From a virus (lineage: Duplodnaviria > Caudoviricetes), in IMG/VR virus record IMGVR_UViG_3300020365_000001: a stretch of 64,000 nucleotides of DNA; one strand, written 5' to 3'. Each line of letters starts with the position of its first letter. Positions within the stretch are counted from its first letter, which is position 1. The notes under the pieces are model-generated. The model saw only the letters and a list, made by a program, of their open reading frames with translations. It was not told where the DNA came from and did not search any database. A program made the position numbers and the translations under genes. Positions 1 to 64,000 of the stretch are shown here, in pieces.

Positions 1-366
1 ATCAGTAGACTCTTCAGACGACAGAACAAGAACAACCTGAGCAATGACACCTGAAGTCTTGCCCTTGATACGGAGACCAACCAGTTTGTCGTAGTAGAGT
101 TCTACCGGAACACCAAAGAACGTAGACTCTACTTTGACATACGTGTAGTCAAAGTCATAGTTGAACTTACCAGGGATTACAACAGATCCCTCTTTGAAAA
201 TATGTTTACCAAACTTCTCAATCTGTCCCTGTAGGATAGATTGCAGAGTTGTTAGTTCTCTCGCTTGGACAGGAGATCCTGGTTTGAACAGAACTTTGTT
301 GAAATTCTTTTCAGAATCAAAGTCGTCAAAATATGGACTGACGTTTAGGTTGGTGTTCTGTGGCAT
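1..366 (-). CDS. VrlC-like/DUF4815 virion structural protein, N-terminal part (runs off window)
   Basis: Not in the ORF track. ATG at 366 gives MPQNTNLNVSPYFDDFDSEKNFNKVLFKPGSPVQARELTTLQSILQGQIEKFG, the typical N-terminus of this cyanomyovirus protein downstream of gp8. Confidence 0.85.
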   Translation of the reverse strand, partial: MPQNTNLNVSPYFDDFDSEKNFNKVLFKPGSPVQARELTTLQSILQGQIEKFGKHIFKEGSVVIPGKFNYDFDYTYVKVESTFFGVPVELYYDKLVGLRIKGKTSGVIAQVVLVLSSEESTD

Positions 367-370
367 CGTA

Positions 371-1900
371 TCAGAATTCTAAGATAATTTTGATATCTTC
401 TCTTTGGTTTGTCGCTCTAGTAACTTCAGGACGATTATCTAAGTAGATAATGTCGCCAGAATACTTTTGGATTTCAGGAGAAGCAATACCAGAATTGAAA
501 GTTTGTCCGAAGTAATAAGTACGGTTGTTCACAGTTGTTGATACTCCCGTGAACCCACTATCGATAGCAAGTGTCTCTGTGCCAGTGGTTGTTTGGACCA
601 CAACGTTCAAAGATCCGCCTGTACCAGGGGTTTTCGTAAACCTATTTAGACGGTATTGATGCATGGACGCTGCATCTCCATTGGCAACACTACGATCTTG
701 CCAATACTGTAGGACCTGAGTTACAGTGTCGTAACCGATAATTTTACCAATAGCAGTAGAACCAACACCTACTGTCTGAGAAACCTCACCGTCAGTCTGG
801 ACCGCCATAGTCGTAGAGGCAGCACCAGTCAAACGGATACCGTAAAGACCTGATGCGGTGGGGGCGTCCAACAGGTTAGTGCTACCACTAACAAGAGGAT
901 TCTTGATAACCCCGATACGAGCAAACTGGTTACCGGTGGGGAAGTCAGGATTGGTAACGTCAGAGTTCTCGATACGTGAATAAACGAGAACTTTGTTAGA
1001 ACCCAACTCACGATAAACGTCAGCACCATGTCCACCTGGAGGAGGAATGATTACTGAGAAGGATGCACCAGAACCATTGACGACGGAATCGAGGTCAAGA
1101 GTTGCAAAAGTGTACCCGGTGCCCCCGTTTGTGACCTGCACATTGGTAGGTTTGCCATTGACGAAAGTGACAGACGCTACGCCGTCTTGACCATCTCCAC
1201 GAATGGGGACGCCATTCTTTGTACCAGAGAATTGGTATGATGCACTAGCAACGTTCTCAATGACAATGACTTCAATCTTTCCGTCAACAGCAGCGTTCCG
1301 AACATCTTGTACATCCGTGCTAGTTCCCCAGTCGCGGGGGACAGGAATGTAGTCAGCACTATCAAACTTGATAATGTCGCTGGGTTTGATTGTATACAGA
1401 TACTTCCAAATATATCCATCACTTTCCAAACGAGGTTGGAGATCAGTGTGCACAGGTTCTTGGAGAGAAATAATCCCCTTACCACTGTTTGATGGTGCAG
1501 CACCATTGTAGATACACTCATAAACCCGGAAGTCCGAGTTGATGATGTAATAGTTGGAATTATAGAGACTAGTAGAACTAGTATTAGGACTCAGGTTGTC
1601 AATACTGTAGTCGTGACGGTACATCTCATAGATGGAACCACTCGTCCAGTTATTCTTACGAATAACTCGAAGGACATCAGACGAATTGATTTTCTTTGCA
1701 GAAATCAACGTATCATAGATCTTATCGTGCTCATCAAAGTTATCGATGGGCGACGGGGTGTTGGTGTTCCAATCAGATGCAACATCAGTGGCGTTCGGCA
1801 AGCCAATAAAAACATAATAACTGTTATCAGTGGTTGAGATTCCGCTGACAAAGTTAGATGCGTTCAACACCCTGATTTGGTCAGTTATAATGGCTGGCAT
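371..1900 (-). CDS. gp8: Baseplate wedge subunit gp8
   Basis: 509 aa; YYVFIGLPN, DGYIWKYLYTI, PPGGHG and REDIKIILEF C-terminus; gp25-gp6-gp7-gp8 order; late promoter upstream. Confidence 0.9.
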   Translation of the reverse strand: MPAIITDQIRVLNASNFVSGISTTDNSYYVFIGLPNATDVASDWNTNTPSPIDNFDEHDKIYDTLISAKKINSSDVLRVIRKNNWTSGSIYEMYRHDYSIDNLSPNTSSTSLYNSNYYIINSDFRVYECIYNGAAPSNSGKGIISLQEPVHTDLQPRLESDGYIWKYLYTIKPSDIIKFDSADYIPVPRDWGTSTDVQDVRNAAVDGKIEVIVIENVASASYQFSGTKNGVPIRGDGQDGVASVTFVNGKPTNVQVTNGGTGYTFATLDLDSVVNGSGASFSVIIPPPGGHGADVYRELGSNKVLVYSRIENSDVTNPDFPTGNQFARIGVIKNPLVSGSTNLLDAPTASGLYGIRLTGAASTTMAVQTDGEVSQTVGVGSTAIGKIIGYDTVTQVLQYWQDRSVANGDAASMHQYRLNRFTKTPGTGGSLNVVVQTTTGTETLAIDSGFTGVSTTVNNRTYYFGQTFNSGIASPEIQKYSGDIIYLDNRPEVTRATNQREDIKIILEF

Positions 1901-1923
1901 TACGCTATTGAACTTTATCGTTT

Positions 1924-1930
1924 TATTTAT
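1924..1930 (-). promoter_or_regulatory. T4-type late promoter ATAAATA
   Basis: Plus-strand tatttat ~24 nt upstream of the gp8 start. Confidence 0.7.
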
Positions 1931-4824
1931 GGGAGATCCAAGAGCAATCTGCTAGTTCTCACCACTTCGGGTGCAGTGGATAGACCCACCAGACCTTCTG
2001 TAGAGTTGACAGCAAATGAGGTTCCTATGTTTCCGCAGGTAACTTTCGCCCAACTAAATGTGCCGTAGTTGTTACCCACATCACTACTCAGACCAACAAA
2101 TCCTGGTGCTAGACCATGATTAGTTTGGATATTGACATGAACTCTCACAACTTGAGAGGCAAGATCTTCGATGTGCGATACTTCGTATACACCATCTAGG
2201 AACTCTGTAGCAATGCCAACTGTTCCAGTTCTGTCTTGAGTAAGTGCGGTTACACCAGTACCAACATTAGATCTAGAGATGACAAAGTAGTCACCTGTAC
2301 CAATACCGGTCTTGGATATACCTCCATATTTATTGACCCGCGCTTGGGCATTCAATGGGATGTGTAAATGTAGTTGCAGTGCTTGAGCACTCACACCCAC
2401 CCCACAGATAGTACCTTGGTCACCTGCAATGTTGGCACTTTCAATACTGACAACAGGCGTCTGATAGGTAGTAAGACCAAATCCAGTGGTAGGTCTGGCA
2501 GTATCTACAATCCTGATCGGGAAGTCTGATGTTGGATTGAAGGTATTTCCCTCACTGAATCGGAATCCAAGAGCACCACCCTGCATGTAAATAACGCTGT
2601 CGCTACTAGCGATGCTTTTGATTGCTCGGGAAGATGGGAAGACATTGCCAGCAAGTTCGGCACGGGACTTACTAACCTTTACACCCTCCACAAAGAGATC
2701 ATCTCTCTGCTTGGTCCACCGCAAAGGACGCAGTGGATCTACCACGTCAGTGATACCGGGACCCTTGTAGTTTGTAGTAAGAAGGGTGTCACGAGTCAGG
2801 ATGTCACGAGCAACTCTGGAATCCTGATCAATAATCTTGACACCATCACCTTTCTTGATAGACTCAAGTGCAGAAGCAGTATCAATGTCAGAGTCGGTTC
2901 CCCGGTAGAATAGAATTTGGCAACTAGAACCTGCTACAGGAGGTTCAGTAAATTCGATCCTAGTTCCACCAGAGAAGTTATATGCAACACCTGGTTTTTG
3001 CAGGACATCATTGATGAAGATTAGTAGAACATCGTCAAGACTAATCGGACTACCTTCCTGCTTTTCAATACTAAGAACGACATTGTTATTCTTCAGTTGG
3101 AACGTAGTCTTACGACCATTGAATTGATCACTAATGTCATCTAGGATTTGCAACTTACCAAACACCCAACCAGCAAACTCATCGTCTGCGGTGTCTTCTA
3201 CAGTAAAGATAGCGTTCTGGAAATTTGCTCCAATGCTGCTAACTGTAGGAATACCAACTACATTCAGGGTCTCGCCAACAGTATATCCATAACCAGGGTT
3301 GGTGATTGTAAACTCACCCAGACTCTTTCCAATACCAATTTCAACAGAGATGCTGGCACCTACACCAGTGTTGGCGCTTTCTAATTTGACATCATCATAC
3401 AATCCGGGTTCATATCCAAAACCTTGACTATTGCCAATAGAAACAATGATACCCTTTCTAGGCAGTTTGTTAGCATTGACATCAACGGTGCTGAGAACAT
3501 CTACTCCACCAGGAGTTTGTGTTCCAGTAAACCTAACAGAAGTAATACCTGTTGTAGAACCACCAATAAAAGTGTAGTCTTCGGAAGGTTTCTGGAAAAT
3601 ATTATTGATCAGAATTGCACCAAAATCACTGGTGATGCCTACAGTATTGCTGCCGCCAGAAGTCAGGGTAAAGGTTTTGCCAATACCAGTAAAGTTCTGG
3701 GCAACATCATCCATGACAACATTGCCGTCGTAGTCACTACGAGTAAATGCTCTGCCTTGGAAAGAACTACCAACAATGTCATCAGCAAAGACCAGGGTAT
3801 GAGTTCCAATACCAGCAGAGGTTAGTGCAATGGGTTGATTGGTTACAGCATCATCTTTAGTATCTGCAAACTTGAATGTGTTTGGTTCAGATTGGATAAT
3901 GTAGTATTCCCTGTTAGAAACAAGTGGAGAAGGTGGTGTCAATGAACGAAGTTTGACGGCACTTCCAGTCTCAAGACTCTCAGTAAGAATAGTAAAATTA
4001 TGATCTGTTCCTAGACCAACAATATTACTTGAATTGATACCAACTTGTCTACGATTGCCACCAAAAGGAACGTCTACAAAAGTAATCTTATCGCCAATAA
4101 TGTTGTAATCACCAAACACCAGCATGGCGGTGTCGCCAGCAGTATGGGTTTGTAATCTAGTTCCCAACCAACTTCTCTTTACCAGAAGGGTGTTAGCATT
4201 GCCACCACTGTTGGTAACTTCAACCACCATGATCTCATCATTGATTTTGATGAGACTACCTGCTTCAAACATACTAGCATCATCTAGAACAAGTGTATTG
4301 TTAGAGATAGAGACCAATGATGCAGTAGTATTCTGACGTGGATAAACCGGTGACTGAACAATATTGTCAATCAGGATAATACACTTGGTGTTTAGTTTCT
4401 TTGCAGTAAAAGCGTGAGTGGCACCCACACCAACAGTTGTGAGACCAATGGGAGAATTCTGTAACGCTAATGCTTTTGTTGCTGCAAGCCGGATCTTATT
4501 CTCGTCAACTTTGATTGCAAATACACTCTTGGGCAAGGTGGTTCCAGCACCAGTGCCGTTCTGCCCATGCTGAATGCCAATAGGAAAAGTAGATCCGGTA
4601 AAATCTACATTGGGATGGGAATCATATACCAGTTCTTCACCAGTCCGATAGAAATGGTTCGGAATGACAATCGAATCATCACCTAAAAGAATATCGGTTG
4701 TACTATCCCCAACAAATTCTTTCTTGAACAGAGGATCTCCCTCATGTCTCAGAGTAAACTGATTGAGGAAGGTCTCTTGCTCAGCGTTGAATTTTTTGTT
4801 GACGGATCCTATTTGAAATCCCAT
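1927..4824 (-). CDS. Baseplate/virion structural protein (gp7-associated)
   Basis: 965 aa, Gly/Thr/Ser-rich beta repeats; ATG overlaps the upstream TAA (TAATG at 4822-4826). Confidence 0.75.
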   Translation of the reverse strand: MGFQIGSVNKKFNAEQETFLNQFTLRHEGDPLFKKEFVGDSTTDILLGDDSIVIPNHFYRTGEELVYDSHPNVDFTGSTFPIGIQHGQNGTGAGTTLPKSVFAIKVDENKIRLAATKALALQNSPIGLTTVGVGATHAFTAKKLNTKCIILIDNIVQSPVYPRQNTTASLVSISNNTLVLDDASMFEAGSLIKINDEIMVVEVTNSGGNANTLLVKRSWLGTRLQTHTAGDTAMLVFGDYNIIGDKITFVDVPFGGNRRQVGINSSNIVGLGTDHNFTILTESLETGSAVKLRSLTPPSPLVSNREYYIIQSEPNTFKFADTKDDAVTNQPIALTSAGIGTHTLVFADDIVGSSFQGRAFTRSDYDGNVVMDDVAQNFTGIGKTFTLTSGGSNTVGITSDFGAILINNIFQKPSEDYTFIGGSTTGITSVRFTGTQTPGGVDVLSTVDVNANKLPRKGIIVSIGNSQGFGYEPGLYDDVKLESANTGVGASISVEIGIGKSLGEFTITNPGYGYTVGETLNVVGIPTVSSIGANFQNAIFTVEDTADDEFAGWVFGKLQILDDISDQFNGRKTTFQLKNNNVVLSIEKQEGSPISLDDVLLIFINDVLQKPGVAYNFSGGTRIEFTEPPVAGSSCQILFYRGTDSDIDTASALESIKKGDGVKIIDQDSRVARDILTRDTLLTTNYKGPGITDVVDPLRPLRWTKQRDDLFVEGVKVSKSRAELAGNVFPSSRAIKSIASSDSVIYMQGGALGFRFSEGNTFNPTSDFPIRIVDTARPTTGFGLTTYQTPVVSIESANIAGDQGTICGVGVSAQALQLHLHIPLNAQARVNKYGGISKTGIGTGDYFVISRSNVGTGVTALTQDRTGTVGIATEFLDGVYEVSHIEDLASQVVRVHVNIQTNHGLAPGFVGLSSDVGNNYGTFSWAKVTCGNIGTSFAVNSTEGLVGLSTAPEVVRTSRLLLDLP

Positions 4825-7800
4825 TAGAGTGTTATGGTTGTGTCGTTTGCGACGTTATCGGGTTTGTCAATTCGGATTTCAGAAACCCGGACAACATAGT
4901 CCTTGTTTGCTAGTGGCGTAAACCTCAAACGCATATTATTGCCACTGATGTTTATATCTATGGCTCGAATATCACGCTTCTGTTGAGTAGCGTTAGACAG
5001 GTTATTGTATACGTTATAATTTGAATATCCAGCAAACGCATTTGCGGATACGTTGAACACGGAGTATTCATCATCAGTGGTGTTATGCACTTGAATCAAA
5101 TACTTCACAGAGGTGTAGTTAGTGTAATCCTTGGAAGAAACAATAACTGCGGAAGGAGATCCAGTAGCAGCAATCTCTGTGCGAGTAGCATTCAACTCAG
5201 CATCACCCACCTCAATTTTAGGAATCTCCGAAACATTCAGTCCAGCAGTGGTGGCAACACCAACAGAGGTTGTCAAAGTTCTAATGGTAACTGCCTGGTT
5301 TGCTGCGGGAGTATATTGGAGTTTGAGAACTCCGCTATTTTGAACAACGTCAAAATCTCCCAAGGTGCTACCAGAATTCATGTTGCCATAATCTGAGAAC
5401 AGGACTCCACCAGTGCCATCTGCCAAGAAGTTATATTCCTCAAGATCAGTTTCTGTATTGCTAGAGTGAACAACCAAAATTGTTCCTGACTTGAAGTCAG
5501 AAGCATCAATATCTTGAATAGTATGTGTTGCGGGAGAACCAGTTGCAGAGAAAGCAGAAGCAATACCAATCTTCTCGATGTTGGAATAAGAAGTGCTTCC
5601 TACACCAAGAGATTTGAGAACTGCTTCTTTATAGAACGTGATGTCGTAAGTGAAAGTGTTGTTGTAGGGTTCAAAAGAAACCTCAACAACATTTCCGTTC
5701 TGTTGTACAACAAACTCGCCCAAATCAAATGCATCTGACAGATCAGAATACTGGTTGATATATGCGTCAGTTCCGTCTGTGAATACAGCGAACTCACAAT
5801 ACTGAGTAGCATTGTAGGAAATTCCCAGAGAAGAATCTAGGACAACCTGAGCATAATACTTGACACAAACAGGACTGTTGGCAGAAGAGGTGTCAAAAGA
5901 GTCAATAGCAACTGTTCGGATGAGGTTAGGATCATCATAGAACTGGGGACTGATGTCATCAATCTCCAAAACGCGGTTAGACTTACAGATCAGAGAAGAA
6001 CCAAAACGTTGTGCATTGAAAATAATCTTGTCACTTACAGTGTTGGTTGCATTTGGTTCTTCATAAACCAAGTCGAAGTTATGGATATTGGACAGGGAAT
6101 CTTCACTGTCAATCAGGACCACAGACTTGGAGATAGTTCCTACGCCAACACCAGTAGTAGAGGTTTTACCAACACCAGTGGGTTGCGACGGAATCAGCAT
6201 GTCTGAATGCTTTTTGAATCCGGCAATATGTGCCAGTGCATCAACTGGTTCACTCCAAGAAGCAATTCCAACGTTACTCTTCAGAGAGTATGCAAACGAT
6301 TGATAGTAATCACTGTCTTGGATGCGCTGATAGAAGTTAGACAGTTGTCCGACATCATTTTCCCATCCAAAACGTTTCTTGAATACAACACCAACATCAA
6401 AGTTTCCTTTGAAAGTTTCTATCCTCTCGATAGTTCCGCCTGAACCGGAGAGTTCAGCAGTAATGCTGTCTCCAACTTGGAATTCGTCAACATTGTTGAC
6501 ACGAATAACATTTCTTACTTTACCTTCGCCCGAGACAATTCTAGATGTCTCAGAATTACGCATATTGATAATTCGCTCACCTTTGAAGAATCTACCTTCA
6601 TCAAGAGTCACATCAAACTTGGCAATGTCCTTATCGTTGCTAACAGTGCCAAAGGTTCCCAGATCATAGACGCCAGGATCAACGGGGACCTCATAAGTAA
6701 TCGTTGCTTTGTTGATAAGACCAACAGCCGGATTGACTGCTGTTAGAGTAAAGGTATCAAATCCAAATGTGGATGAGTTATATCCATGGCCGGATGTCAC
6801 ACCAACGTTCTCAACGAACACTTTATCGCCAACTGCGAATGGCATGTTAGTTGCATCAAATCCAGTCTCTGGGGTCTTCAGAGTTAGAGTGACATTAGGA
6901 GCACTATATGTGACAGTTACAATACCAACTCCATTGCTGTTGTTGATAGCAACCAGTTTATTGTCACCACTGCTCAGGTTGTTACCTCCCTGGACAATGC
7001 GAACATTAGATACACTAGAACCAAGAAGTTCTACTTTGAATTCAGTGCCAGCATTGACTTCATTCTTCTTCGTGTTATAGATTACCAAGTCTGGACCAGT
7101 CAGATATTTCTTGCCAGTGCTGGTAATAGCAACGTTAGAGACGGTGAAGTTGTCCTTCAGGAAGAGAACCTGAGGCATCTCTGCTTCTGGACGCAGAGTC
7201 TTATCTGATGGATAATCATAACCAGACTGGATGATTTCTACAGTATCCAACTTGCCAACGTTTGAACCAGAAGCACGCAGCAATGCAGATGTACCAGTTG
7301 TTGACCCAACAGTTACTTGCGGAAGATCTCTATAACGAGTACCCTTAGAAACCAAGAGCAGATCAGCGATTGGACCTTTCTCAGTAAGAGAAGTCGTGGT
7401 ATAATTGATGTCTGCTGTTACTGAAGTATATCCAACACGTTCTGGGTTCTCAAAAATGTTGAACTTGAATGTGTCGCTAGTAACAGAACTAATAGATGCT
7501 TTGGTCGTAAAATCACTTTGTGTGACTACGATCTTACCGTAATCGTCAATAGAGTCATCGACTTCAATAATCTTAGAAGTATCAAGTGATTCTAACTTGT
7601 AGAATAGAGTTCTAGGAACTTCTGGAGTGAAGTGTACAGATGCCTTAGAACCACTAGAACCAGGGGCACCACTATAACTAACTTCGATAGTAGATTTACC
7701 GGAACCAACAAAAGACTTCTGGTACGTTGAATCTAGATAGAATCCGAGTTTAGTGTTTGACAAAGACGAATCAGACATGTCAAACTCAAGCAGATCACCA

Positions 7801-16472: not shown

Positions 16473-17858
16473 TTAGAACACTTTTACGTTATACTTTGCC
16501 TGAAAATCCAGTGCATCACCCCAATCGTTGACCATGGGTTTGCCCCTTATGTTCAATGAAGTGTTGAGTAGTACAGGACAACCTGTGACACGATACCACT
16601 CCTCTAGGATAGGTCTTAGGATGCTGCTAGAGGTCTCAGGTACAGTTTGTACTCGTGCACTATTATCGACGTGTACAGCAGCAGGAATCTCCTCAGGACG
16701 CAAACAATTATAGACATATGACATATACCTAGAATGCGAATGATTCATGTCAAAATAATCCCGACAATGCTCTTCTAGGATTGCAGGAGCAAAAGGCCGG
16801 AATTCCTGGCGTTTTTTGATGCGATTTACTTTTTCCTTGTTCTCGGCTTTCCTAGGATCCGCTAGAAGTGATCTGTTGCCTAAAGCACGGGGACCATACT
16901 CTGCTCTGCCATTTGCAACACCCACAACGCCATTTTCAAGCAAACACTGAACAACATCCTTAGGATCAACCTTACGTTCAATATTATGTCCACAGTAAGG
17001 CGTCCACTGCACTTTCTTGCCAGATACCAACAATGCAGCACCTAACGCCGCTCCAGCATCTCCTGGGTTAGGCATAATCCATAGATTGCACATTTCCCGC
17101 AGTTTGGTGTTAGCAACGCAGTTTAGAGCAACCCCACCACCATAACAAACGTTATTGCTGTACTCAAGTGCTATCTTGAAGATTTTGGTCAGTTCTTCTT
17201 CCAAAACAACTTGAGCACTCTTTGCCAAGTCAAAAGTTGAGTTGGAGAAGTCAATATTGATTCCCCGGTGATTATTTTCTGTTAGGAGTTGTCTGAGTTG
17301 GTTTTCGTGCTTATTTTCACCAAATGCCGCCATACCCATAAAAATATACTCTTCATCCAAAGGACGAAGACCAGCATACTTCGTTAGAGCAGAATACCAA
17401 AGACCAATCGACTTTGGATACTTCTTAGACCAGACTTTCGTATATTTCGCTCTTCCGTCAATCATATTGGCAACCCAGACTGAACTACAGTCAAATTCGC
17501 CAATACTGTCTACAACAACACATGCTGCCTGCTCAAACACCGAAGTTTGGAATGCTGCGGCAGCATGAGACAAATGATGGGTAAAATCTACCGTAGGACG
17601 AAATCTTAGTTCCCTAGGTTTGTTCCAATGCTTCTGTCCAGCAAAAAACTGCCTCATCCGTTTAGGAAAAGGTTTTTCATAGAAAGCATAGACACCATCA
17701 TAGGTATTCAGTGCTTCCGCCATAAATGCAGCTTCATCACAAAGATATTTGTCATGTTTCTTCTTTGAGTACCTTTCGCCGTGTGTGGCAAAGATAATTC
17801 TGTCTTCATGAACTACTGCAACTGCTGAGTCATGAAAACCTTCGGAAAAACCAATCAT
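16473..17858 (-). CDS. Carbamoyltransferase, NodU/CmcH family
   Basis: 461 aa; HDSAVA, HHLSHAA, GGVALNC, GDAG, EYGPRALGNRS, RPFAP, HVDNSARVQTV, LNTSLN motifs. Confidence 0.95.
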   Translation of the reverse strand: MIGFSEGFHDSAVAVVHEDRIIFATHGERYSKKKHDKYLCDEAAFMAEALNTYDGVYAFYEKPFPKRMRQFFAGQKHWNKPRELRFRPTVDFTHHLSHAAAAFQTSVFEQAACVVVDSIGEFDCSSVWVANMIDGRAKYTKVWSKKYPKSIGLWYSALTKYAGLRPLDEEYIFMGMAAFGENKHENQLRQLLTENNHRGINIDFSNSTFDLAKSAQVVLEEELTKIFKIALEYSNNVCYGGGVALNCVANTKLREMCNLWIMPNPGDAGAALGAALLVSGKKVQWTPYCGHNIERKVDPKDVVQCLLENGVVGVANGRAEYGPRALGNRSLLADPRKAENKEKVNRIKKRQEFRPFAPAILEEHCRDYFDMNHSHSRYMSYVYNCLRPEEIPAAVHVDNSARVQTVPETSSSILRPILEEWYRVTGCPVLLNTSLNIRGKPMVNDWGDALDFQAKYNVKVF

Positions 17859-28847: not shown

Positions 28848-29471
28848 TTAGATAAATTGTAAGACTCCTGTGACACTTTGCGAAGCGTCTTTCTTACTAA
28901 CTCGTTGTTTTGCTCGTTGATACAATGCTTGATCACTTTCACATCCCCAGTAATGACGACCGAGACGTTTTGCACTCACAGCAGTATCACCATCTCCCAT
29001 GAATATATCAAGCACAGTATCACCAGGGATAGTATATGCGTTGATTAGTAGTTCATCAAGAGATTGACGAGATGTAGATGAATGGACGCAAGTGTAGTGA
29101 TCACTATCATTTTTGTAAGTGAAATCCTTGCCCTTTGAGTAACACCAAGCATGTTGATGTTTGTGTGCAAAGTTCTTCTTACTACGACGACCAGTTCTAC
29201 ACTCAAACACGATCTCATTCTGCTCTGTTAGTTGTTTGTTACGATTCAGAGCATACTTATACACTAAGAACGATTCATTCTTGAGTGTTCCCCACACAAT
29301 CATCATCCCATTGGGTTTCAATACACGCACACATTCTGTGGTCCATTTCATACACCAACTGAGATACTTTTTACCTCCACCAGGTGGAGGTTCAGTGAGG
29401 ACGAGATCAACAGAATTGTCCTTCAATTTACTGAGAAACTGTAAACAATCCTTGTGCTGTAATTTATTCAT
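28848..29471 (-). CDS. Degenerate beta-class N6A/N4C DNA methyltransferase, probably catalytically dead
   Basis: DCLQFL...SVDLVLT-EPPP (for DPPY), RVLKPNG, GDTVLDIFMGDGDT (for DPFxGSGTT), no HPTxKP; only 207 aa. Confidence 0.8.
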   Translation of the reverse strand: MNKLQHKDCLQFLSKLKDNSVDLVLTEPPPGGGKKYLSWCMKWTTECVRVLKPNGMMIVWGTLKNESFLVYKYALNRNKQLTEQNEIVFECRTGRRSKKNFAHKHQHAWCYSKGKDFTYKNDSDHYTCVHSSTSRQSLDELLINAYTIPGDTVLDIFMGDGDTAVSAKRLGRHYWGCESDQALYQRAKQRVSKKDASQSVTGVLQFI

Positions 29472-29998
29472 AAGTTGGCATACAATGACTTCATGAAGGG
29501 AAAGTCTTGGGGGAATCCATCAAGGAAAAATGTACCTGAGTTCACGGTTTTACCACCATGTTGGTTGTACTTCCAGAACCCATTCTCATCTTGTGCTGAC
29601 ACGAACTCATCAACTTCTTGTTTGGTTGATGAATACATCTCAACACGATCAGGATACATTGCCAGGAAGATAATCACATCATAGTCTTGACTAGTGCGAA
29701 TTTGTTGCCAACGAAACTGATCACCACCACCCCACAACATCGATCCTTTGATTTCACATCGACGACCGTTGATGATACGATCGTATTCACTTTGTTTTGG
29801 ACGAGTAACTGCGAACCCAAGATGTTTGCAGTATTCACTAACAAGTTGCTCAAAGAACTTTCCCTTGCGTTTGCTACTCATTTCTTTGTAGACACGAAAG
29901 GGAGAATCAATGTAGAGATCAGCATCACGATCATTCAATGCATCATCGTGAGTCTGATAACTTTCAATGAACTGAGCAGGAATCGTGGTGTCAATCAT
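29468..29998 (-). CDS. Type II restriction endonuclease-like PD-(D/E)xK nuclease, MseI-like (predicted TTAA)
   Basis: KGKFFE...YDRIING...EIKGS intact; SPF, FRWQQIR..QDYD and QHGG match my recollection of R.MseI; ATGA-coupled to the MTase; TTAA not found in the window. Confidence 0.8.
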   Translation of the reverse strand: MIDTTIPAQFIESYQTHDDALNDRDADLYIDSPFRVYKEMSSKRKGKFFEQLVSEYCKHLGFAVTRPKQSEYDRIINGRRCEIKGSMLWGGGDQFRWQQIRTSQDYDVIIFLAMYPDRVEMYSSTKQEVDEFVSAQDENGFWKYNQHGGKTVNSGTFFLDGFPQDFPFMKSLYANL

Positions 29999-32099: not shown

Positions 32100-32120
32100 T
32101 GCTTTGTTTGAACTGAAGTT

Positions 32121-35240: not shown

Positions 35241-35954
35241 ATGTATAAGGGAAAAAGCACGTTATGTGTCATTCCGGCACGGATGTCGTCAGGTAGATTC
35301 CCTGGCAAACCCATGGCGCTCATCAATGGCACCCAGATGGTCCTGAGAGTGGCAGAAATTGCATCTAGGTCAAAGTATGTTGACAACGTTGTAATCGCCA
35401 CTGAGGACGATTCTATCGTAGATCTGTGCTGGGAGGCAGGTTATGATGCTTTGCTGACAAGTAAGCACTATACATGCACACATCGTGTTGCTGAGGTAGC
35501 AGCACATCAACCATACGATTACATCTTCAATCTACAGGGTGATGAACCACTCACTAAACCTGAGTGGATAGACGAAATGATTGCCTATGGTATTGATAAC
35601 GATGTTGATGTATTGCAGAGTTCACGAAGATTAGAGGATGGAGAGATCGAAGACGAAGATGTTGTCAAAATGATAGAGAATAACGGTAAGGTTATTCATA
35701 TGCAACGCTCACCTGATGTGGTGTGTGATAATATCACGGTGCAATTAGGATTATATTTTTATAGACGAAGTGTTATTGTTGATTTCCCTAATTGTGACAT
35801 GACCTTTGTCAAGTATTGGAAGGGTCTTGATACTATTGGATTTATTGGTAAATATGATGTAATACCATACGATCTAAAGTGTGGTAAAATCAGAGCAGTT
35901 GACCGTGCCTGGCACATCCAAGAGGTAGAATGGTTGTTGAACCTGAAGAACTAA
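35241..35954 (+). CDS. kdsB: CMP-KDO synthetase-like cytidylyltransferase
   Basis: IPARMSSGRFPGKPM, IATED, THRVAE, NLQGDEP, VVK, GLYFY, AVD motifs. Confidence 0.85.
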   Translation: MYKGKSTLCVIPARMSSGRFPGKPMALINGTQMVLRVAEIASRSKYVDNVVIATEDDSIVDLCWEAGYDALLTSKHYTCTHRVAEVAAHQPYDYIFNLQGDEPLTKPEWIDEMIAYGIDNDVDVLQSSRRLEDGEIEDEDVVKMIENNGKVIHMQRSPDVVCDNITVQLGLYFYRRSVIVDFPNCDMTFVKYWKGLDTIGFIGKYDVIPYDLKCGKIRAVDRAWHIQEVEWLLNLKN

Positions 35955-36793
35955 GAGTTGCAGCAGATATGCTCAGCAGTGCTACCAACGTGGCATTGCT
36001 GGGCACTGGTGGTAATCTTGCCATTGCACAACACATGGCAAGTGACATTTACCGTCACATGAATAAGTTCTGCTTTGCACCAGACAGTGTGAATCAGACT
36101 GCACTGGGTGGTGATTATGATTGGAAGATTCCCTGGTTAGATTATGCTGCTAAGTCAGCAGATCTCATCATTCTTATCACTTGCAGGATACAATCACCTG
36201 CTGTATATGCTGTTGAAGCACTAGAAAAAGAATGGCGTAGATCACCACCATTCAGAACTCATGTGCTTATTATTGCACCAGAGAAACACGAATATCTTCC
36301 TACATTGGTGGTTGAATCTAATTTCTATCACGAATTTGAAGTATTTGCAATGATGTCCATCTATAACATGATGGAAGAGTGTGGTGTTGAGTTACCAGCA
36401 CTACCACGTCATGCACCTACAAAAGATATTAGTTCACGATGTGATGTATATTGTGTTGATATTGATGGCACACTGACTGAACCACATGATGGTGATCCAT
36501 GGAACGCAGTACCACGAATGGATCGCATTGATAAGATCAATAAAATGTATGATAACGGTGCTACGATATATCTACAAACTGCACGTGGATTTATCGTTAG
36601 TGCACAGAGATACCCTGATGACCCACAAGCACAGCAACGTAATGCTGACTACCTTTGTCGCAGCAGGACTGAAGCACAGTTGAAAGAATGGGGAGTAAAG
36701 TATCACAAACTATTCTTTGGTAAACCACGAGCATCAGTTTATGTTGACGATCGTGGATCACATGATAGTGAGTTCTTTGCTTTACTAGAGTAA
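35930..36793 (+). CDS. SIS (sugar isomerase)-like domain fused to a HAD phosphatase
   Basis: GTGGNLAIAQHMASD N-terminally; VDIDGTL, TARG, FGKP, YVDDR C-terminally. Confidence 0.8.
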   Translation: MVVEPEELRVAADMLSSATNVALLGTGGNLAIAQHMASDIYRHMNKFCFAPDSVNQTALGGDYDWKIPWLDYAAKSADLIILITCRIQSPAVYAVEALEKEWRRSPPFRTHVLIIAPEKHEYLPTLVVESNFYHEFEVFAMMSIYNMMEECGVELPALPRHAPTKDISSRCDVYCVDIDGTLTEPHDGDPWNAVPRMDRIDKINKMYDNGATIYLQTARGFIVSAQRYPDDPQAQQRNADYLCRSRTEAQLKEWGVKYHKLFFGKPRASVYVDDRGSHDSEFFALLE

Positions 36794-42000: not shown

Positions 42001-42865
42001 CATCTGGAGTTGCAATGGTAGGACTCGTACCAAAGACCAGAGCACCAGAACCAGTCTCGTCAGTTACGACAGAACGGAAGTTGGAACTAGAAGGAGTTGC
42101 CAGGAAGGTGGCGACGTTGTTAGCAAGACCAGCAACACCGGTGCTGATCGGAAGACCAGTGGCATCAGCAAGGTTGAATGCTGGGGTAGCATCTGAACTA
42201 CCGAGATCAACAGAAACACCACCAAAGGAGACGCTATCGTTGATCAGTTTGCTGTTAGCAATACTACCTGCCAACTGAGCATTGGTAATAGTACCAACCA
42301 GACTGCTAGTGGGGTAATCAGTAGCATCGGAAAGGTTGAATGCTGGTGTTGCATCAGAAGCACCAAGATCAACAGAGACACCACCAAAGGAAACGCTATC
42401 GTTTACCAGTTTGGAGTTGGCAATATTGCCTGCCAACTGGGCATTGGTGATCGTACCAGTCAGGTCACTGGTTGGTAGATTACCACTAAAAGTTGTTGCG
42501 GAAAGTGTGCCGCCACTGAAAGTCAGTGCAGAATCATCTTGAAGTTCACCACCAGTACCAGCAATCACCACACGACCAGAAGTCAGGTCGCCAATCTGTG
42601 CACTAGCAGCAGTAAGACCCGCCGACACATTTACGGTGGTTGCTTTGAGGAAGGTAAGAGTAGAGATCCCAGTGATTCTCTGGTTCGATGCTGTTACCTC
42701 ATCATAAGAAAGATCACCAGTGACTGCAAGATCGCCCAGGACCGAAAGGTCTCCGAACATGCTAACATCAGCGGCGAACGTAGACACGCCAACGTGGGAT
42801 GAAAGACCAGCAATAACCTGCTGATTCTTTCCACCAACCTTAGCTAGTTCCCTGGCTCTTGACAT
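39068..42865 (-). CDS. Long tail fibre protein with internal repeats
   Basis: 1265 aa; repeats of GTITNAQLAGSIANSKL and DGSGSGLDADTLDG; ATAAATA at 42898-42904. Confidence 0.85.
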   Translation of the reverse strand: MSRARELAKVGGKNQQVIAGLSSHVGVSTFAADVSMFGDLSVLGDLAVTGDLSYDEVTASNQRITGISTLTFLKATTVNVSAGLTAASAQIGDLTSGRVVIAGTGGELQDDSALTFSGGTLSATTFSGNLPTSDLTGTITNAQLAGNIANSKLVNDSVSFGGVSVDLGASDATPAFNLSDATDYPTSSLVGTITNAQLAGSIANSKLINDSVSFGGVSVDLGSSDATPAFNLADATGLPISTGVAGLANNVATFLATPSSSNFRSVVTDETGSGALVFGTSPTIATPDVTGRATMDDITLSGGVVVGAGLTVSGNLVVNGTTTTINSTTISVDDKHLELGATSSPSDTSANGGGVILKGDSDHTILWQNDNDQWEFSENVNLVSGKTFQIADASVLSATTLGSGVVNSSLTSVGTIASGVWQGTAIANAYIANSSISLGGVSISLGGSNATPAFDLSDATDYPTSSLVGTITNAQLAGSIANSKLSNSTVSVTAGNGLSGGGTASLGGSVSLAINVDDSSIQLSSDELSVKSLGITNAMLAGSIVNSKLANNSVSYGGVELALGASDLTPAFNLADATNYPTSSLVGTITNAQLAGSIAASKLAGSIGNSLLSNSSISLGGVSVSLGGSNATPAFDLSDATDYPTSSLVGTITNAQLAGGIAASKLAGSIGNSLLSNSTVSYGGVSLALGASDATPAFDLSDATNYPTSSLSGTITNAQLAGSIANSKLATSGVSAGTYGSSSAIPIITVNNRGIVTSASTTSIDTTSIADGDTSVTASDAGSSGSTVDVTIDNSIVSSFLGSGFDVTGNITVSGTVDGRDVASDGSKLDSIESGADVTDATNVNAAGAVMNSDTSTASMSFVTDQDNMSGNSSTKVPTQQSVKAYVDTSINNLVNGAPGALDTLNELAAALGDDSDFSTTITSSIATKLPLAGGTMTGNIVMSGSQTVDGRDVSVDGAKLDGIESGATADQSAAEILTLIKTVDGSGSGLDADTLDGVSSGSFLRSDTGDTKTSGNLTFNDDVKARFGSGGDLHVYHDGSNSILHNDTGNLKVEIDSSNGNDIQILNNNTTTISNHSFSYSAKFISGGSVELYENGSKKFETTTSGVSVSGNIAVSGTVDGRDVASDGSKLDGIESGATADQTASEILTLLKTVDGAGSGLDADTLDGITSGNFLRSNTSDTFSGTLTMSGNIIPNANGTRDLGSSSTRWANVYSSDLDLSNEAKGPNSIDGTWGSYLIEEGEEHLYITNRRSGKKFRFLMEEV
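40680..42470 (-). repeat. ~51-aa coding repeat units
   Basis: About six copies of SVSxGGVSxxLGxSDATPAFxLxDATxYPTSSLVGTITNAQLAGSIA, with high DNA identity. Confidence 0.85.
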
Positions 42866-58750: not shown

Positions 58751-60023
58751 TAGAATAGAATGCGAATGAATCTCTAACAATGTAAAGTCCAGTAAAAGCA
58801 CCTTGTGGTCCACCCATCTCGTGTGCGAGTGAGAATACCATGTAGTTACCAGAGGACGGGTTTACACCTTCCTTATTCTTCTCAGTATTTAGGTTCGGGA
58901 ATTTGAAGTTCAACATGCTCCCAACTTGAATACTAAGATTCAAAGGTATTGTAACCTTTACAAATTCAGACATCAAAGACTGATACCTAGCAGATGCATG
59001 TGCTTGTCTCCAAGACACAGTTTCTGCTATAGTTTTCAGATCAGGAGTGTCTGACATTGCCCCCACGTCCAGAGCAGTTGTATATATCCTAGAAAACTTC
59101 TCATCAATTTTGTTTGGAACATACTGATCTTCGTTTGCACTAGGCAGTTTACTATCTTTGTAACTGTACTCTACAAAGTGTGGGGTTCGGTCAAGTATAT
59201 TATAGTACCAGTTTGCCGATTTGTATTGTCCCTCCATGAGTTTTTTGATGATATCATGACTTGTTATGAACTCAGGCGAACTAACCAGGGAAAAATTATT
59301 GACTTCAGCAGCAGACTTAGCAGCTGCCTTTATATACGACTCCTCCACCTCTCTCTTGAGTGCTTTGTCAACTGAGAAAAACCTATATCCACTGCGTTCA
59401 GTCTCTGCTAAGAAATAACCAGCACTACCTTTTTCAGGAGAAGTTTTTCCTTCAACATCTCCAACAGTCTTTGCAGATAACCTACTGATACACTCAAGAG
59501 GTCTCATGTAATTACCCATGAAATCATAGGTATTTGAACTTTCATCTACAATATCAATTCGATCGCTCTTTACCTCCAAAACTTCTTTGAAGATTTTTTC
59601 GACACTATCAGAAATCTTACCTTTATATTTCTTGAAGACACGTGTTGTCTGATTACTCAGTGTAGTTTGAGTAACACATTCAAAACCAAATAGTTCTCTT
59701 TTCGCATCAGAGAATGTAGAAATTATATTACTGATTATCAGTTCATTATTTTTACTCTTAGAAAACTCAAATGGTTCATCAATACTGGGGTGTTCAATAA
59801 CAAGCTCTACCTCTTGACCGCTACGGAGGGGTGCTGACGCTCGGAATCCTATCGCATCAGCAAACACAAAAGATACTGTCAGAGTGTTACCTGCACTCTC
59901 CTCATATCTGATTGCTAGAGATTGTCCCACCAAAGACTGAAGAGACCTAGCTCCATCGTCCGTAACAACGTTCAGTTTCTTGATGACAAAATCTTTAGAC
60001 CAACGCTTGTTCCTATTCTTCAT
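58743..60023 (-). CDS. Tail/baseplate hub protein (gp27-like)
   Basis: 426 aa; N-Y-FMGN..P, SAGYF..ET..GYRFFSVD, SGNYMV..LAH. Confidence 0.7.
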   Translation of the reverse strand: MKNRNKRWSKDFVIKKLNVVTDDGARSLQSLVGQSLAIRYEESAGNTLTVSFVFADAIGFRASAPLRSGQEVELVIEHPSIDEPFEFSKSKNNELIISNIISTFSDAKRELFGFECVTQTTLSNQTTRVFKKYKGKISDSVEKIFKEVLEVKSDRIDIVDESSNTYDFMGNYMRPLECISRLSAKTVGDVEGKTSPEKGSAGYFLAETERSGYRFFSVDKALKREVEESYIKAAAKSAAEVNNFSLVSSPEFITSHDIIKKLMEGQYKSANWYYNILDRTPHFVEYSYKDSKLPSANEDQYVPNKIDEKFSRIYTTALDVGAMSDTPDLKTIAETVSWRQAHASARYQSLMSEFVKVTIPLNLSIQVGSMLNFKFPNLNTEKNKEGVNPSSGNYMVFSLAHEMGGPQGAFTGLYIVRDSFAFYSNE

Positions 60024-61987
60024 TAGTTTAGAATATCCAGATAAGAATAGGTGTCTATTCCATATTTATTGGCACCAAAAGCACCAAAGGGAAGAACTGC
60101 TGAATCGTCAGATGATTCAGATGCCTGATTCTGTTCTCCACCTTGATCTACCATCTCTTGGGGTTTGAATAGCAGTTCTGGCAACAAAAATAATGGTGCA
60201 AGTATACTATTCATATCATTACCACCACCAGTTTTAGACTTTGAAAAAGGATTGATGCGGTCTAAGAAGTTTCTCATCAACCCACTTCCAGATTGTTGTG
60301 CTTCTTCTGCCCTACGTTGAGAAAGGGGTCCTTGAATGTCCCTTCTTAGTTGATCCGCAGCTCTTTGAGATCTGATATTATCAACTCCCCGTCCTTTGTC
60401 AAGGAGTGAATCTCTTATTGCATCAAGTCTGCCTCGGAATCTATTGAACATATCTCTCACTGTTTCCCTTTTACCCATCGGTGCATCATCTATCGCTCTG
60501 AAAAGATCATTCACTCCACTAGGTTTCTCAGGAACTTGAGGTTGAGTTGTTTTTGTTGGTTTTCGTGGTTTACCAAAAATTGTGTCCATAGTGCGCTGAG
60601 TTTGGGCAGATGGCACTTGGAATTGTGATGGTTTTATTTTAGGATCAACTATTCTAGTGTTGACAGACGTATTTCCTCTGACATTACCTCCTCGTCGAGT
60701 CATCCCCCGAATCATACTACCAGTAATAGGTAACTGATTGAGTACGTCTTGTGCGACAAGGAAACCACCTATGAATGGATTATCAAGGGTCTTCTGTGTA
60801 TATTCCCTACGAAGTGCAGTTTCTTCATTAGAGATAAATCGAAACCTAGGAAGAGACCTATTGGGATCAAATATTCCCGGACGCCGGGACATAATCAACC
60901 GACCATAAGGAGTATCTACCGTTTGAGTCTCCCCACCACTATCAACAAATGCTTTTCTCATGTCAGGAATAAAATTCCCAACTTCTGCCGGAATTGCTTT
61001 CCTTTGTATTGCTGCTAACTGCTCCTGAAAAGAAGGTGGTGTCTCGGGTGTTGGTTTTGATGCAGTCTGTCCACTAGGATCCGCAGGGGGTTCTCCTTTA
61101 GGTTCTGGTTTATTCAACATCTCGAAGATCAGGGGAAGACCAGTAACATCACCAGTTCTATCATCATCCCCAAACAGAAGATTTTCTAATTTAGTAACTG
61201 CTTCATCATAATCCTTATTTGACCCTTTCATTTTAGTGGGTCCAGATAGTCTAGCTTTTTGAATCTCTAATTGTCTACGTTTATCTGCACTCTGCCCGAC
61301 ACCAGTAAGACTATCTGAAATGTTGGCACCTAGAGATGCTCCAGTAAAACTACCAAGCAGACCACCCAGAACACCACCAATAGCAGCACCAGGAACAGCA
61401 CCAACTCCACCAAAAAGTGCGCCAATAGATCCACCAAGTAAAGCACCACCTTTGGCACCAGCAGCCATACCTGCCAAACCACCTGCTGTTGTGCTAAGTG
61501 CACCACTAACTGCCTGTGTTTGTGTCTGACCCTCTGACAGTCTCATTCCATAATCAACACCCGTCAATGCTGTAGTGGCAACAGCGTTGAATCTGCCCAT
61601 TCGCAGACCACCACGCAAACCACCCCTACCAGGAACTCTGCTCCTAGGTCCAGGAACAATTCTGTTTCCAGGTTTTACTCTACCACCACCAGGACCAGGA
61701 CGACCACCGCGACCAGGACGACCACCAGGACCACCACGACCACCCCTAATTTTACGAAGAAGACCAGCACCCGCAGCACCCAGTCCAAGAGTGCCTAATA
61801 AAGAACCAGGAGAAAATGGATTCTTCTGATCTTCCTGTGCTTTTTTTAGATCTTTCCTAAAACTTTTATAAACTTCTTCTCTTTTTTTAGAAAGTTTTTC
61901 TCTCGCTGCAAGGTTCCTCTGCTCACCTTGGTGAACAACTTGATTGCGGCGAATTATTAGTTGAGATACTGCTACAATATTCTGCAT
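60023..61987 (-). CDS. Tail-associated protein with RGG-rich and glycine-zipper segments
   Basis: 654 aa; GGRGGPGGRPG, GAAIGGVLGGLLG. Confidence 0.6.
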   Translation of the reverse strand: MQNIVAVSQLIIRRNQVVHQGEQRNLAAREKLSKKREEVYKSFRKDLKKAQEDQKNPFSPGSLLGTLGLGAAGAGLLRKIRGGRGGPGGRPGRGGRPGPGGGRVKPGNRIVPGPRSRVPGRGGLRGGLRMGRFNAVATTALTGVDYGMRLSEGQTQTQAVSGALSTTAGGLAGMAAGAKGGALLGGSIGALFGGVGAVPGAAIGGVLGGLLGSFTGASLGANISDSLTGVGQSADKRRQLEIQKARLSGPTKMKGSNKDYDEAVTKLENLLFGDDDRTGDVTGLPLIFEMLNKPEPKGEPPADPSGQTASKPTPETPPSFQEQLAAIQRKAIPAEVGNFIPDMRKAFVDSGGETQTVDTPYGRLIMSRRPGIFDPNRSLPRFRFISNEETALRREYTQKTLDNPFIGGFLVAQDVLNQLPITGSMIRGMTRRGGNVRGNTSVNTRIVDPKIKPSQFQVPSAQTQRTMDTIFGKPRKPTKTTQPQVPEKPSGVNDLFRAIDDAPMGKRETVRDMFNRFRGRLDAIRDSLLDKGRGVDNIRSQRAADQLRRDIQGPLSQRRAEEAQQSGSGLMRNFLDRINPFSKSKTGGGNDMNSILAPLFLLPELLFKPQEMVDQGGEQNQASESSDDSAVLPFGAFGANKYGIDTYSYLDILN

Positions 61988-61988
61988 A

Positions 61989-63740
61989 TTACGTTACCAA
62001 CAAAGATGGGGAATTGTAATTAGACAGAAGACTCAAATTCGCGATAGCATTACCAGTACCAGTAAAAGAAACTGCCTCTACTTTTACATCACCATTACTT
62101 GGTGGAGGAGCAGCACCTTGAATGGGTGTTGGTGGAGGAATTGCCGATGCCACATCCCCACTCGGAAGGATTGGCAATGATGATTGTAAATCCTCTTCTG
62201 TTGGAGCTTGTTCAGTCTCTAATGCTGGGGGGTCAATATTAGCAGGAGAATAATTCTCCGGTCGAACATCATCGACTTGCTGCGAACGAGGTTCTAATGA
62301 TGTAGGAGAAATATCAAAAACAAGACCGCCCAATGGCATGTCGAACTTTCTATCATCACCATGTCCAGTTTTAGTGAGTATCTTACCACTAGCATCTCTA
62401 GTTTGAACAGATGCACCATAACCTGAACTCTCATTATATACTAAGGATCTTCCTCCTAAAGTTGGCACCAATATTTCAGCATTTTCAGCACTGTCACCAA
62501 AACGATCCTCATTCGCTTTATTGATATAGTAATCAATACTATTGAAGTCACTGTGTAAACTATGTGAGTGAGCAGCAAAACTATCGTTTAGCAGTTTTAC
62601 TTTCTCATCATAAGTCATATCACTACTATATCTTCTACCTGCTACTGCCGTATTTGACATCTCCATTGTTCTACCTTGCGCTTCATATCCTGCTGCAAGT
62701 TGATCCATCATTTTGACAACATCTTCCATCGGAAGATCTTTATTGAATTTCGTATCCACATGATATGAATTTCTACCATCAGGGGTAGGTAACATACCAA
62801 TAGATTCCTCAGGTCCAGTAAGTAATCCAGACCTGAACGCTTTGGTTTCACTAGCATTACCATATATTTTGGTTCCATCCGGATCCTGATAAGGATCTCT
62901 TTCTCCTTTCTTGGTAGATTTATCTTCCCCTTTACCGTCTACTAATTCTTCTCCTTTCTTAGAAGATTTATCTTTTTCATCTTCTCCCAGAGTCAATCCA
63001 GCAAGTCTATCTAAAGCTCTACTAAATCTTCTAGATATTGATCCAAATCTTTCAACATCACCTTGATTGATAATATTCTCGCCTGCAATTCCTTCTCTCA
63101 AGAATTGCCCACGTTTTTGATCAGCTGGTTGCTGTCCACCGGACATGGAACCAAGTGCCATTGCTCCTAGAGCAAGTAGTGCCATGATACCACCGGCACG
63201 TCCTCCTCCACCCATTCTACCTCCACGAGGAATTCCCCCTCCGGCTCTTACACCACCTTGTGGTACCCTTCCTCCACCTCTGTTACCACCAGAAACCGCC
63301 CTGATGCCGAGTATAGTGGCAACCCCTCCTGCTATCTCTGGGAGATAAGAAAGTGCGGCAGTGCCAGCATCAACAGCAGCATTACCAAAATCACCCTTGG
63401 TAAGGTTGAGGATTGCAGAAACAAATGATACTTTGCCAATAAAATCCCTGATACCAAAGAAACTAGTCTTCAGTAGTTCTAGGTTTTTTTGATCTTTTTT
63501 GACAATTTTAGCTTCTCTATTCAGTTCTCTTCGTCTTAGTCTAATATCTTTCTGAAGTTCCCTACGGGTAGCTTTCATGCTGGCATCCATTCTCTCCATA
63601 TCCAGGAGAATGCTACCAAGTCTTCTAGTTACCTTAGTCTGATTATCAACAACCGAATCAGCAGTTTCTTGTGCACGACTTACCTCGCTCTGTATAGGAG
63701 CAAGTAAGGGTGTTACTGCTGTGACGGTGTTGCTATCCAT
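61989..63740 (-). CDS. Tail-associated protein with M23 peptidase-like domain
   Basis: 583 aa; N-terminal coiled coil, HSH..NSIDY, SGYG..V..TKTGH. Confidence 0.55.
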   Translation of the reverse strand: MDSNTVTAVTPLLAPIQSEVSRAQETADSVVDNQTKVTRRLGSILLDMERMDASMKATRRELQKDIRLRRRELNREAKIVKKDQKNLELLKTSFFGIRDFIGKVSFVSAILNLTKGDFGNAAVDAGTAALSYLPEIAGGVATILGIRAVSGGNRGGGRVPQGGVRAGGGIPRGGRMGGGGRAGGIMALLALGAMALGSMSGGQQPADQKRGQFLREGIAGENIINQGDVERFGSISRRFSRALDRLAGLTLGEDEKDKSSKKGEELVDGKGEDKSTKKGERDPYQDPDGTKIYGNASETKAFRSGLLTGPEESIGMLPTPDGRNSYHVDTKFNKDLPMEDVVKMMDQLAAGYEAQGRTMEMSNTAVAGRRYSSDMTYDEKVKLLNDSFAAHSHSLHSDFNSIDYYINKANEDRFGDSAENAEILVPTLGGRSLVYNESSGYGASVQTRDASGKILTKTGHGDDRKFDMPLGGLVFDISPTSLEPRSQQVDDVRPENYSPANIDPPALETEQAPTEEDLQSSLPILPSGDVASAIPPPTPIQGAAPPPSNGDVKVEAVSFTGTGNAIANLSLLSNYNSPSLLVT

Positions 63741-63909
63741 TAGCGTTTTGTATCTCTAACTTTTGCTTTTCTAAGAAGTTTGACAGGTATTTTACATATA
63801 CCTCTCGTTCCCATGGTATAAGACTTTCAATATCACTTAGCGACCAATGATGATGCTGCAACAATGCAAAGTTTACTTCCATATGTGCATCAATCGTCGT
63901 ATGGTACAT
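63733..63909 (-). CDS. gp51: Baseplate hub assembly catalyst gp51-like
   Basis: Not in track; NFALLQHHHWSLSDIESLIPWEREVYV. Confidence 0.85.
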   Translation of the reverse strand: MYHTTIDAHMEVNFALLQHHHWSLSDIESLIPWEREVYVKYLSNFLEKQKLEIQNANG

Positions 63910-63911
63910 CA

Positions 63912-64000
63912 TTATCCGAAAAAATTTGCCATACCCTCAATAACAACTTTAGTTTCTACTCCTGTGTTAGGATTTTTGACACTACCCTCATATTTCAAAC
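63912..64000 (-). CDS. gp26: Baseplate hub subunit gp26-like, C-terminal end
   Basis: ...VKNPNTGVETKVVIEGMANFFG* upstream of gp51. Confidence 0.8.
   Translation of the reverse strand, partial: LKYEGSVKNPNTGVETKVVIEGMANFFG

Follow-up and report, generated by a model that had tools for sequence, protein, structure and literature searches.

Chloroviruses encode restriction-modification (R-M) systems such as R.CviAII/M.CviAII and have virion-associated nucleases that degrade host DNA; phage T4 breaks down the DNA of its host with EndoII and EndoIV and protects its own by hydroxymethylcytosine; and among virulent phages, site avoidance is known from Anabaena phages and from Bacillus phages lacking GGCC, while staphylococcal phage K is said to have no GATC. 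Here we describe a phage locus that can be set beside each of these systems. A 64,000-base stretch of viral DNA (IMG/VR record IMGVR_UViG_3300020365_000001, referred to in its whole length as the window) contains no TTAA on either strand, and it encodes a restriction-type nuclease, orf176, which is a candidate TTAA enzyme, next to a degenerate homologue of a DNA methylase.

The likeness to the chloroviruses is that the virus carries a Type II enzyme, apparently for offence against host DNA; chloroviruses protect their own DNA by methylation, whereas the clade of the window has lost or disabled its methylase and would rely on the absence of sites. T4 and the present T4-like phage alike must tell their own DNA from that of the host if a nuclease is to attack the latter, but T4 discriminates by base modification, whereas here sequence content, namely the lack of TTAA, would discriminate. 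With the virulent phages the locus shares the silent and (nearly) complete removal of a short palindrome from a large genome; in those cases an enzyme of the host selects, whereas here the phage's own nuclease gene tracks the avoidance and non-carriers propagated on the same hosts are undepleted. Among enzymes, R.MseI and Tru9I-type Type IIP endonucleases (T^TAA), compared by description and not by sequence, resemble orf176 in the inferred 4-bp target, in the small size of the protein and in the N6/N4-type methylase with which most orf176 relatives are paired; unlike them, orf176 is phage-encoded and has no working methylase in the clade of the window. Orlowski & Bujnicki (2008, PMC2441816) count the MseI family as part of the PD-(D/E)XK superfamily, a placement that is compatible with orf176 and does not show homology.

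The avoidance of sites by phages, and by bacteria of the sites of their own R-M systems, is well established (PMC4687349). In the usual views, the methylase of an R-M system restrains its nuclease, and site avoidance by a phage is an escape from host enzymes. The genomes compared below appear to show a third arrangement, in which the nuclease is kept, the methylase is discarded and a 190-kb genome is immune for want of targets. Literature searches, within the library that they covered, returned no description of a phage immune to its own restriction enzyme through total site absence, and those on TTAA avoidance in cyanophages, on solitary restriction enzymes of phages and on restriction features of phage S-ShM2 returned nothing relevant.

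Absence of TTAA from the window and its relatives

The window (positions 1-64000) codes for the T4-type baseplate proteins gp6 and gp8 and contains accessory islands. Its closest cultured relatives by gp6 are Synechococcus myoviruses, at about 50% identity, and judging from these genes it is a T4-like cyanomyovirus, a virus of marine cyanobacteria, for which megablast found no close phage record. An exact search of both strands gave no TTAA, whereas base composition predicts 427, a first-order Markov model 291 and a maximal-order one 193; dinucleotide-preserving shuffles of the window contained 291 on average (standard deviation 15.7). A preliminary description, made from the sequence by eye, had reported TTAA as apparently missing at a guanine-plus-cytosine (GC) content of about 42% (42.8% by computation) and had proposed Markov-based counts as a check; these counts bear it out. 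The remaining AT-only palindromes come close to normal counts (AATT 264 observed against 345 expected, TATA 221 against 252, ATAT 314 against 339), and words one step away from TTAA, namely TTCAA, TTGAA, TTATA, TATAA and TTACA, occur at expectation. The depletion is thus specific to TTAA, with no general loss of AT-only tetramers, and neither of the outcomes that the description had named as contrary to it, a near-expected TTAA count or a depletion of all AT-only tetramers, was found. Even the AT-rich regions at 18-20 kb and 24-29.5 kb have no TTAA, with 7.7 and 21 sites expected under the maximal-order model and 17.8 and 46.9 from base composition, and AATT, TATA and ATAT are plentiful in both, as had been seen by eye. 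The 4.6 kb of non-coding DNA are likewise free of TTAA (about 19 expected); the avoidance therefore extends to intergenic DNA and to the accessory islands, as had been proposed.

Within coding DNA, which makes up 93% of the window in a simple gene call of 55 open reading frames (ORFs), the sites are avoided through codon choice. Phenylalanine is encoded by TTC in 100 of 100 cases in which lysine or asparagine follows, compared with 45% elsewhere; in the same position isoleucine ATT (57% elsewhere) and valine GTT (50% elsewhere) are never used. Leucine TTA is followed by a codon starting with A in none of 115 cases (about 37 expected), and none of the 26 TAA stops is preceded by T (about 11 expected). 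The anticipated constraint on codon pairs such as TTT-AAx and on T-TAA stop contexts is thereby confirmed, and the comparison of orthologues suggested alongside it gave a matching result: in an alignment of gp6, 29 of the 49 TTAA sites present in TTAA-containing relatives are replaced in the window by a synonymous codon with both amino acids kept (for instance, ATT-AAG in relatives and ATC-AAG in the window). TTAA avoidance is fully synonymous, depends on context and includes non-coding DNA. Since codon choice shifts only in contexts that would create TTAA and the proteins are preserved, selection acts on the DNA word itself.

The same absence is found in related genomes. The IMG/VR contig G002 (112 kb), which is 97-98% identical to the window over its positions 28887-92930, has 0 of 323 expected TTAA, the complete 192-kb relative G003 has 0 of 695, and the cultured phage S-ShM2 (180 kb) has 0 of 590. 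Among 79 IMG/VR loci found via gp6, all those with at least 73% identity have no TTAA at a GC content of 38-46%, with the exception of the locus L012 discussed below, and more remote gp6 relatives have 0.2-0.6 of the expectation. These data bear on explanations in which no nuclease takes part: a mutational bias, avoidance of a mobile element that targets TTAA, constraints of structure or packaging, or an artefact of sequencing or assembly. They are generic candidates for any missing oligomer, with nothing specific in their favour. Such causes are very improbable: the absence recurs in independent assemblies, in many metagenomes and in a cultured phage that was sequenced separately, the neighbouring words listed above remain at expectation, and codons switch only where TTAA would arise, with amino acids kept.

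The candidate nuclease orf176 and its methylase-like neighbour

On the minus strand at 29468..29998, the window encodes orf176, a 176-residue protein with the motif and fold of PD-(D/E)XK restriction-type endonucleases. It matches phrog_6927 (7.6e-24); searches of Pfam, NCBIfam and PDB sequences gave no match, and the public names of its homologues are uninformative, all being "hypothetical". In an alignment of 26 homologous sequences, E50, D73, E82 and K84 (E82-x-K84) are invariant and the blocks RWQQIR and NQHGGK..NSGTF are conserved; the catalytic residues are also kept in a distant subfamily described below. The AlphaFold model has a mean pLDDT (predicted local distance difference test) of 92.8, and the best Foldseek matches in the PDB are I-Ssp6803I, NhoI, EcoRV and PvuII (E-values from 2e-4 to 1e-2, template modelling scores of about 0.4-0.5); all of the best solved matches are PD-(D/E)XK DNA endonucleases. 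On the basis of this model we are confident that orf176 would adopt a restriction-endonuclease-like alpha/beta fold. The ratio of nonsynonymous to synonymous substitution rates (dN/dS) is 0.15, and the gene is under purifying selection. Two copies of orf176 are predicted to form a homodimer, with a score of 0.74 compared with 0.00 for the best control; 20 of 30 solved homodimers attained this mark, as did 1 of 23 monomers. Contact agreement between the homodimer runs was at least 89% and partner pLDDT at least 89. The gene lies within a run of small minus-strand ORFs, a layout typical of early regions.

Immediately downstream on the same strand, a 207-residue ORF (28848..29471) matches the beta-class N6/N4 DNA methyltransferases (PF01555, 4e-27, 96 bits), and its start overlaps the stop of orf176 by 4 nucleotides (ATGA). 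Motif IV reads TEPPP (TEPPS in the loci L101 and L105) where all intact relatives have DPPY, motif I reads GDGDT in place of GSGST, and HSSTS occupies the position of HPTTK; 14 residues after motif IV as well as about 38 central residues are deleted relative to the intact relatives. To judge from these changes, the protein is probably no longer a DNA methylase. Its dN/dS is 0.18 in comparison with the L105 copy, which rules out a decaying pseudogene; since the catalytic motifs are lost and yet selection persists, another role is likely. One possibility is repurposing, for instance into a protein that partners or regulates the nuclease.

Nuclease, methylase and TTAA content across viral genomes

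The comparison covers about 60 viral loci together with 12 genomes. Close-family homologues of the nuclease turned up at 45 loci in profile-guided scans of IMG/VR, and members of a distant subfamily at 19. In nearly all loci a methylase lies directly downstream of the nuclease, as an intact beta-class enzyme in about 35 related loci, and the stop-start overlap is kept across about 35 loci. Where intact methylases are visible, in TTAA-containing loci, they have about 250 residues with canonical DPPY and GSGST motifs. As far as gene order can tell, nuclease followed by methylase is the layout of an R-M operon. Within the clade that is free of TTAA, genomes of the G003 type have no methylase, and those of the window type have a shortened, degenerate one.

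The ratio of observed to expected TTAA (here under the maximal-order model) falls into three tiers. In the first, without the nuclease family, it is close to one: S-CAM9 0.90, S-SKS1 0.85, S-SSM7 0.91, S-SRM01 0.95 and S-8S55 0.83. The second comprises loci with the nuclease and an intact methylase, that is, many IMG/VR loci with values of 0.01-0.88 and phage S-BM3 (76 of 552 expected), in which the methylase sits 80 kb from the nuclease. In the third, a nuclease is present and no intact beta-class methylase was seen: besides G002, G003 and S-ShM2, which carries the nuclease as gene SShM2_059 and whose entire genome holds no PF01555 methylase, this tier includes the loci G007 (0 of 95), G009 (0 of 38) and G008 (2 of 34), the nuclease of G008 being adjoined only by a truncated Eco57I-type fragment. 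G007 and G008 belong to another phage background, one with normal frequencies of the words RGCY (depleted in the window, see below), and the association with TTAA is thus not a property of one lineage. Among the 16 four-base palindromes, TTAA alone separates carriers of the nuclease from non-carriers, with median ratios of 0.20 in carriers, 0.32 in the distant subfamily and 0.90 in non-carriers.

The distant subfamily (L145-L163) occurs on unrelated IMG/VR viral contigs with a GC content of 38-52%, is characterized by FSFLQIRP and KQHGG blocks and is often paired with a methylase of about 320 residues whose motif IV reads SPPY. TTAA ranks first or second among the depleted palindromes in 12 of its 19 loci, and L147/G009 has no TTAA in 19 kb. 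ACG-2014f (TTAA ratio 0.84), considered as a counter-example, was set aside since the RWQQIR and QHGG blocks of its nuclease homologue are replaced and a full methylase is present elsewhere in the genome. The cyanobacterial homologue G355 also lacks both blocks and is surrounded by DNA with 26 of 35 expected TTAA. The DNA around nuclease homologues that have neither block shows normal TTAA.

The beta-class methylase may instead have been a TTAA-specific anti-restriction enzyme directed against an outside nuclease and decayed after TTAA was lost, in which case the PD-(D/E)XK protein would be no more than a linked marker with another specificity or role, for example in homing or repair. Orphan methylases are indeed common in phages, and the distance between the two genes in S-BM3 indicates that they do not form an operon in every case. 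We regard this explanation as quite unlikely. Against it speak the conserved stop-start overlap, the arrangement of an R-M unit, and the nuclease-only genomes, which retain the nuclease under purifying selection and are exactly those that are free of TTAA. Moreover, the association disappears where the putative recognition blocks are altered, and comparisons of phages isolated on the same host give no sign of a required outside TTAA nuclease.

These same-host comparisons bear equally on whether the host could have imposed the avoidance. On Synechococcus WH8102, S-ShM2 was isolated as well as S-8S55 (218 of 262 expected TTAA), and on WH7803 S-BM3 (0.14) as well as S-SKS1; S-SSM7 was isolated on WH8109. 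Four of the five nuclease-free phages also lack the beta-class methylase, and these hosts thus do support phages that are rich in TTAA and unprotected. A profile search for this nuclease family in 401 cyanobacterial genomes, in which other enzyme families were not searched for, gave a single remote match; the conserved blocks are missing from it, no methylase match adjoins it, and the DNA around it has normal TTAA. A peptide-pattern scan of GTDB genomes found no cellular homologue of orf176, and none of 46 cellular loci retrieved with a back-translated DNA pattern (about 10 of them in Nostoc) proved to be a real homologue by profile search. Marine Synechococcus could nevertheless possess an MseI-like TTAA system from which the phages escaped by shedding sites, the phage nuclease being irrelevant. 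Such an origin has a precedent, in that a complete loss of a 4-bp palindrome is what is reported for phage K, and the avoidance of further palindromes in a lineage-specific manner resembles pressure from host restriction. It nonetheless appears unlikely, given the TTAA-rich phages S-8S55, S-SSM7 and S-SKS1 isolated on the same strains without the beta-class methylase, the near absence of the nuclease family from the cyanobacterial genomes, and the fact that TTAA depletion follows the phage nuclease across unrelated backgrounds that differ in GC content and in their other avoidances. The same-host contrasts and the host genomes argue for the phage's own nuclease and against a TTAA enzyme of the host, isolation hosts not being the whole host range. 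The earlier proposal that such complete avoidance points to a self-encoded nuclease and not to an occasional host barrier is therefore likely to be correct: the nuclease is encoded, it tracks the depletion, and non-carriers on the same hosts are normal.

We consider it probable that orf176 recognises TTAA as a homodimer and that the genome is immune to it by having no site. The enzyme would descend from a pair of nuclease and methylase genes widespread among marine myoviruses. Phages with an intact methylase would tolerate TTAA and yet be under selection against it, and imperfect self-protection would have driven the clade of the window to zero sites via synonymous and non-coding substitutions. 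Once that point was reached, the partner methylase would have become dispensable, to be deleted in the G003-type sub-lineage and to lose its catalytic motifs in the window type. From then on, the phage's own enzyme would cleave every TTAA that arose, with lethal effect for the phage, and the count would be held at zero; in this proposal, that cleavage is why the absence of TTAA is absolute and long-lasting. The use of the enzyme would be to fragment, early in infection, the host chromosome and the DNA of co-infecting phages that contain TTAA. At 55-60% GC, the host chromosome should hold a TTAA about every 0.5-1 kb, and breaking it up would halt the host and release nucleotides, an outcome that T4 reaches with the help of base modification.

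Several observations weigh against this reading. Cleavage of TTAA by orf176 is suggested by a correlation, and it is we who infer the roles in host DNA degradation and competitor exclusion. The clade of the window counts as one independent origin of zero TTAA, and the independent lineages are few (about five). The loci G007, G008 and G009 are fragments, 6-31% complete, and a methylase could lie elsewhere in their genomes, as it does in S-BM3. Some loci with both nuclease and methylase are near the baseline (L110 0.73, L133 0.72, L117 0.82), which is expected if methylation protects fully but weakens a simple correlation. L012 (IMGVR_UViG_3300012953_002859), at 74% gp6 identity, has 17 of 56 expected TTAA in 12.5 kb; this contig is short, and the nuclease may be lost or the methylase kept there. 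Finally, the 207-residue methylase-like ORF is under purifying selection and hence has some function.

On balance we lean towards a broader interpretation, in which marine cyanomyoviruses and some unrelated marine phages would wield solitary Type II enzymes offensively and protect themselves by purging sites genome-wide, different lineages using different enzymes and sites, and in which the evolutionary path would be visible in present genomes, from an R-M pair with partial site loss to zero sites and then to deletion or repurposing of the methylase. If this is true, missing 4-mers could reveal the specificity of uncharacterised phage nucleases. If confirmed, these genomes would also provide a natural series from an R-M pair to a solitary nuclease, explain how T4-like cyanophages without modified bases attack host DNA selectively, and exemplify selection at the DNA level so strong that it dictates the codon used in every pair of phenylalanine, isoleucine, valine or leucine with lysine or asparagine. 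S-ShM2 on Synechococcus WH8102 would then be a cultured test system.

In the locus L136 (positions 2901-6265), a homologue of S-adenosylmethionine lyase (PF23780) is found between the nuclease and a 460-residue N6/N4 methylase. An enzyme that destroys S-adenosylmethionine beside a methylase that depends on it is an odd combination.

Other avoided words and other genes of the window

TTAA is not the only word avoided. In the window, the CviJI-type words RGCY (AGCC, GGCC, GGCT and AGCT) are depleted about 9-fold, with 43 occurrences against about 375 expected, and two 6-mers are missing altogether, CAATTG (about 15 expected per strand) and CTGCAG (about 13). RGCY is likewise depleted in many cyanomyoviruses, irrespective of the TTAA-linked nuclease, among them G002, G003 and S-ShM2 as well as S-SKS1 and S-SRM01, in which TTAA is normal; it is not depleted in S-CAM9 and only mildly so in ACG-2014f (1015 of 1394 expected). 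The missing 6-mers are AGTACT, TTCGAA, GACGTC and GTCGAC in G003, where CTGCAG is present, AGTACT, GGTACC, GTGCAC and TTCGAA in S-ShM2, and GTGCAC and GACGTC in S-CAM9. Since the 6-mers vary by lineage and RGCY is low in phages with normal TTAA, we treat these avoidances as pressures separate from that of the nuclease; they probably come from hosts.

Two simpler accounts of the RGCY pattern were rejected. Loss through deamination of 5-methylcytosine does not fit, as RGTY and RACY are not in excess and no C5 methylase is present, none having been found in the five records searched (G002, G003, S-ShM2, S-BM3 and S-CAM9). Nor are the leftover words unavoidable Trp-Pro pairs, given that only 3 of 7 GGCC fall in such pairs and most leftovers could be removed silently. 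Of the 19 remaining AGCT, 11 cluster in the last 4.7 kb (59300-63600), mostly as xxA-GCT alanine codons within three large minus-strand ORFs, and this cluster may mark a recently imported segment that is less purged of RGCY. CCGG is at expectation in the window (87 against 85 expected); the corresponding counts are 0 of 93 in S-BM3, 1 of 126 in S-ShM2 and 0 of 24 in S-SSM7.

Among the other genes of the window, a 1265-residue ORF on the minus strand (39068-42865) contains internal repeats of about 150-330 nucleotides, 81-87% identical, which show up as off-diagonal matches in a BLAST comparison with G002; the ORF also has a weak match to DUF7346, and it probably encodes a modular fibre or structural protein. 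The auxiliary genes, located at 16473-17858, 30996-34288 and 35241-36793, encode a carbamoyltransferase, an AAA_5/CbbQ-type ATPase adjoining a 703-residue phrog_459 protein, a cytidylyltransferase (CTP_transf_3) and a phosphoheptose-isomerase-like ORF.

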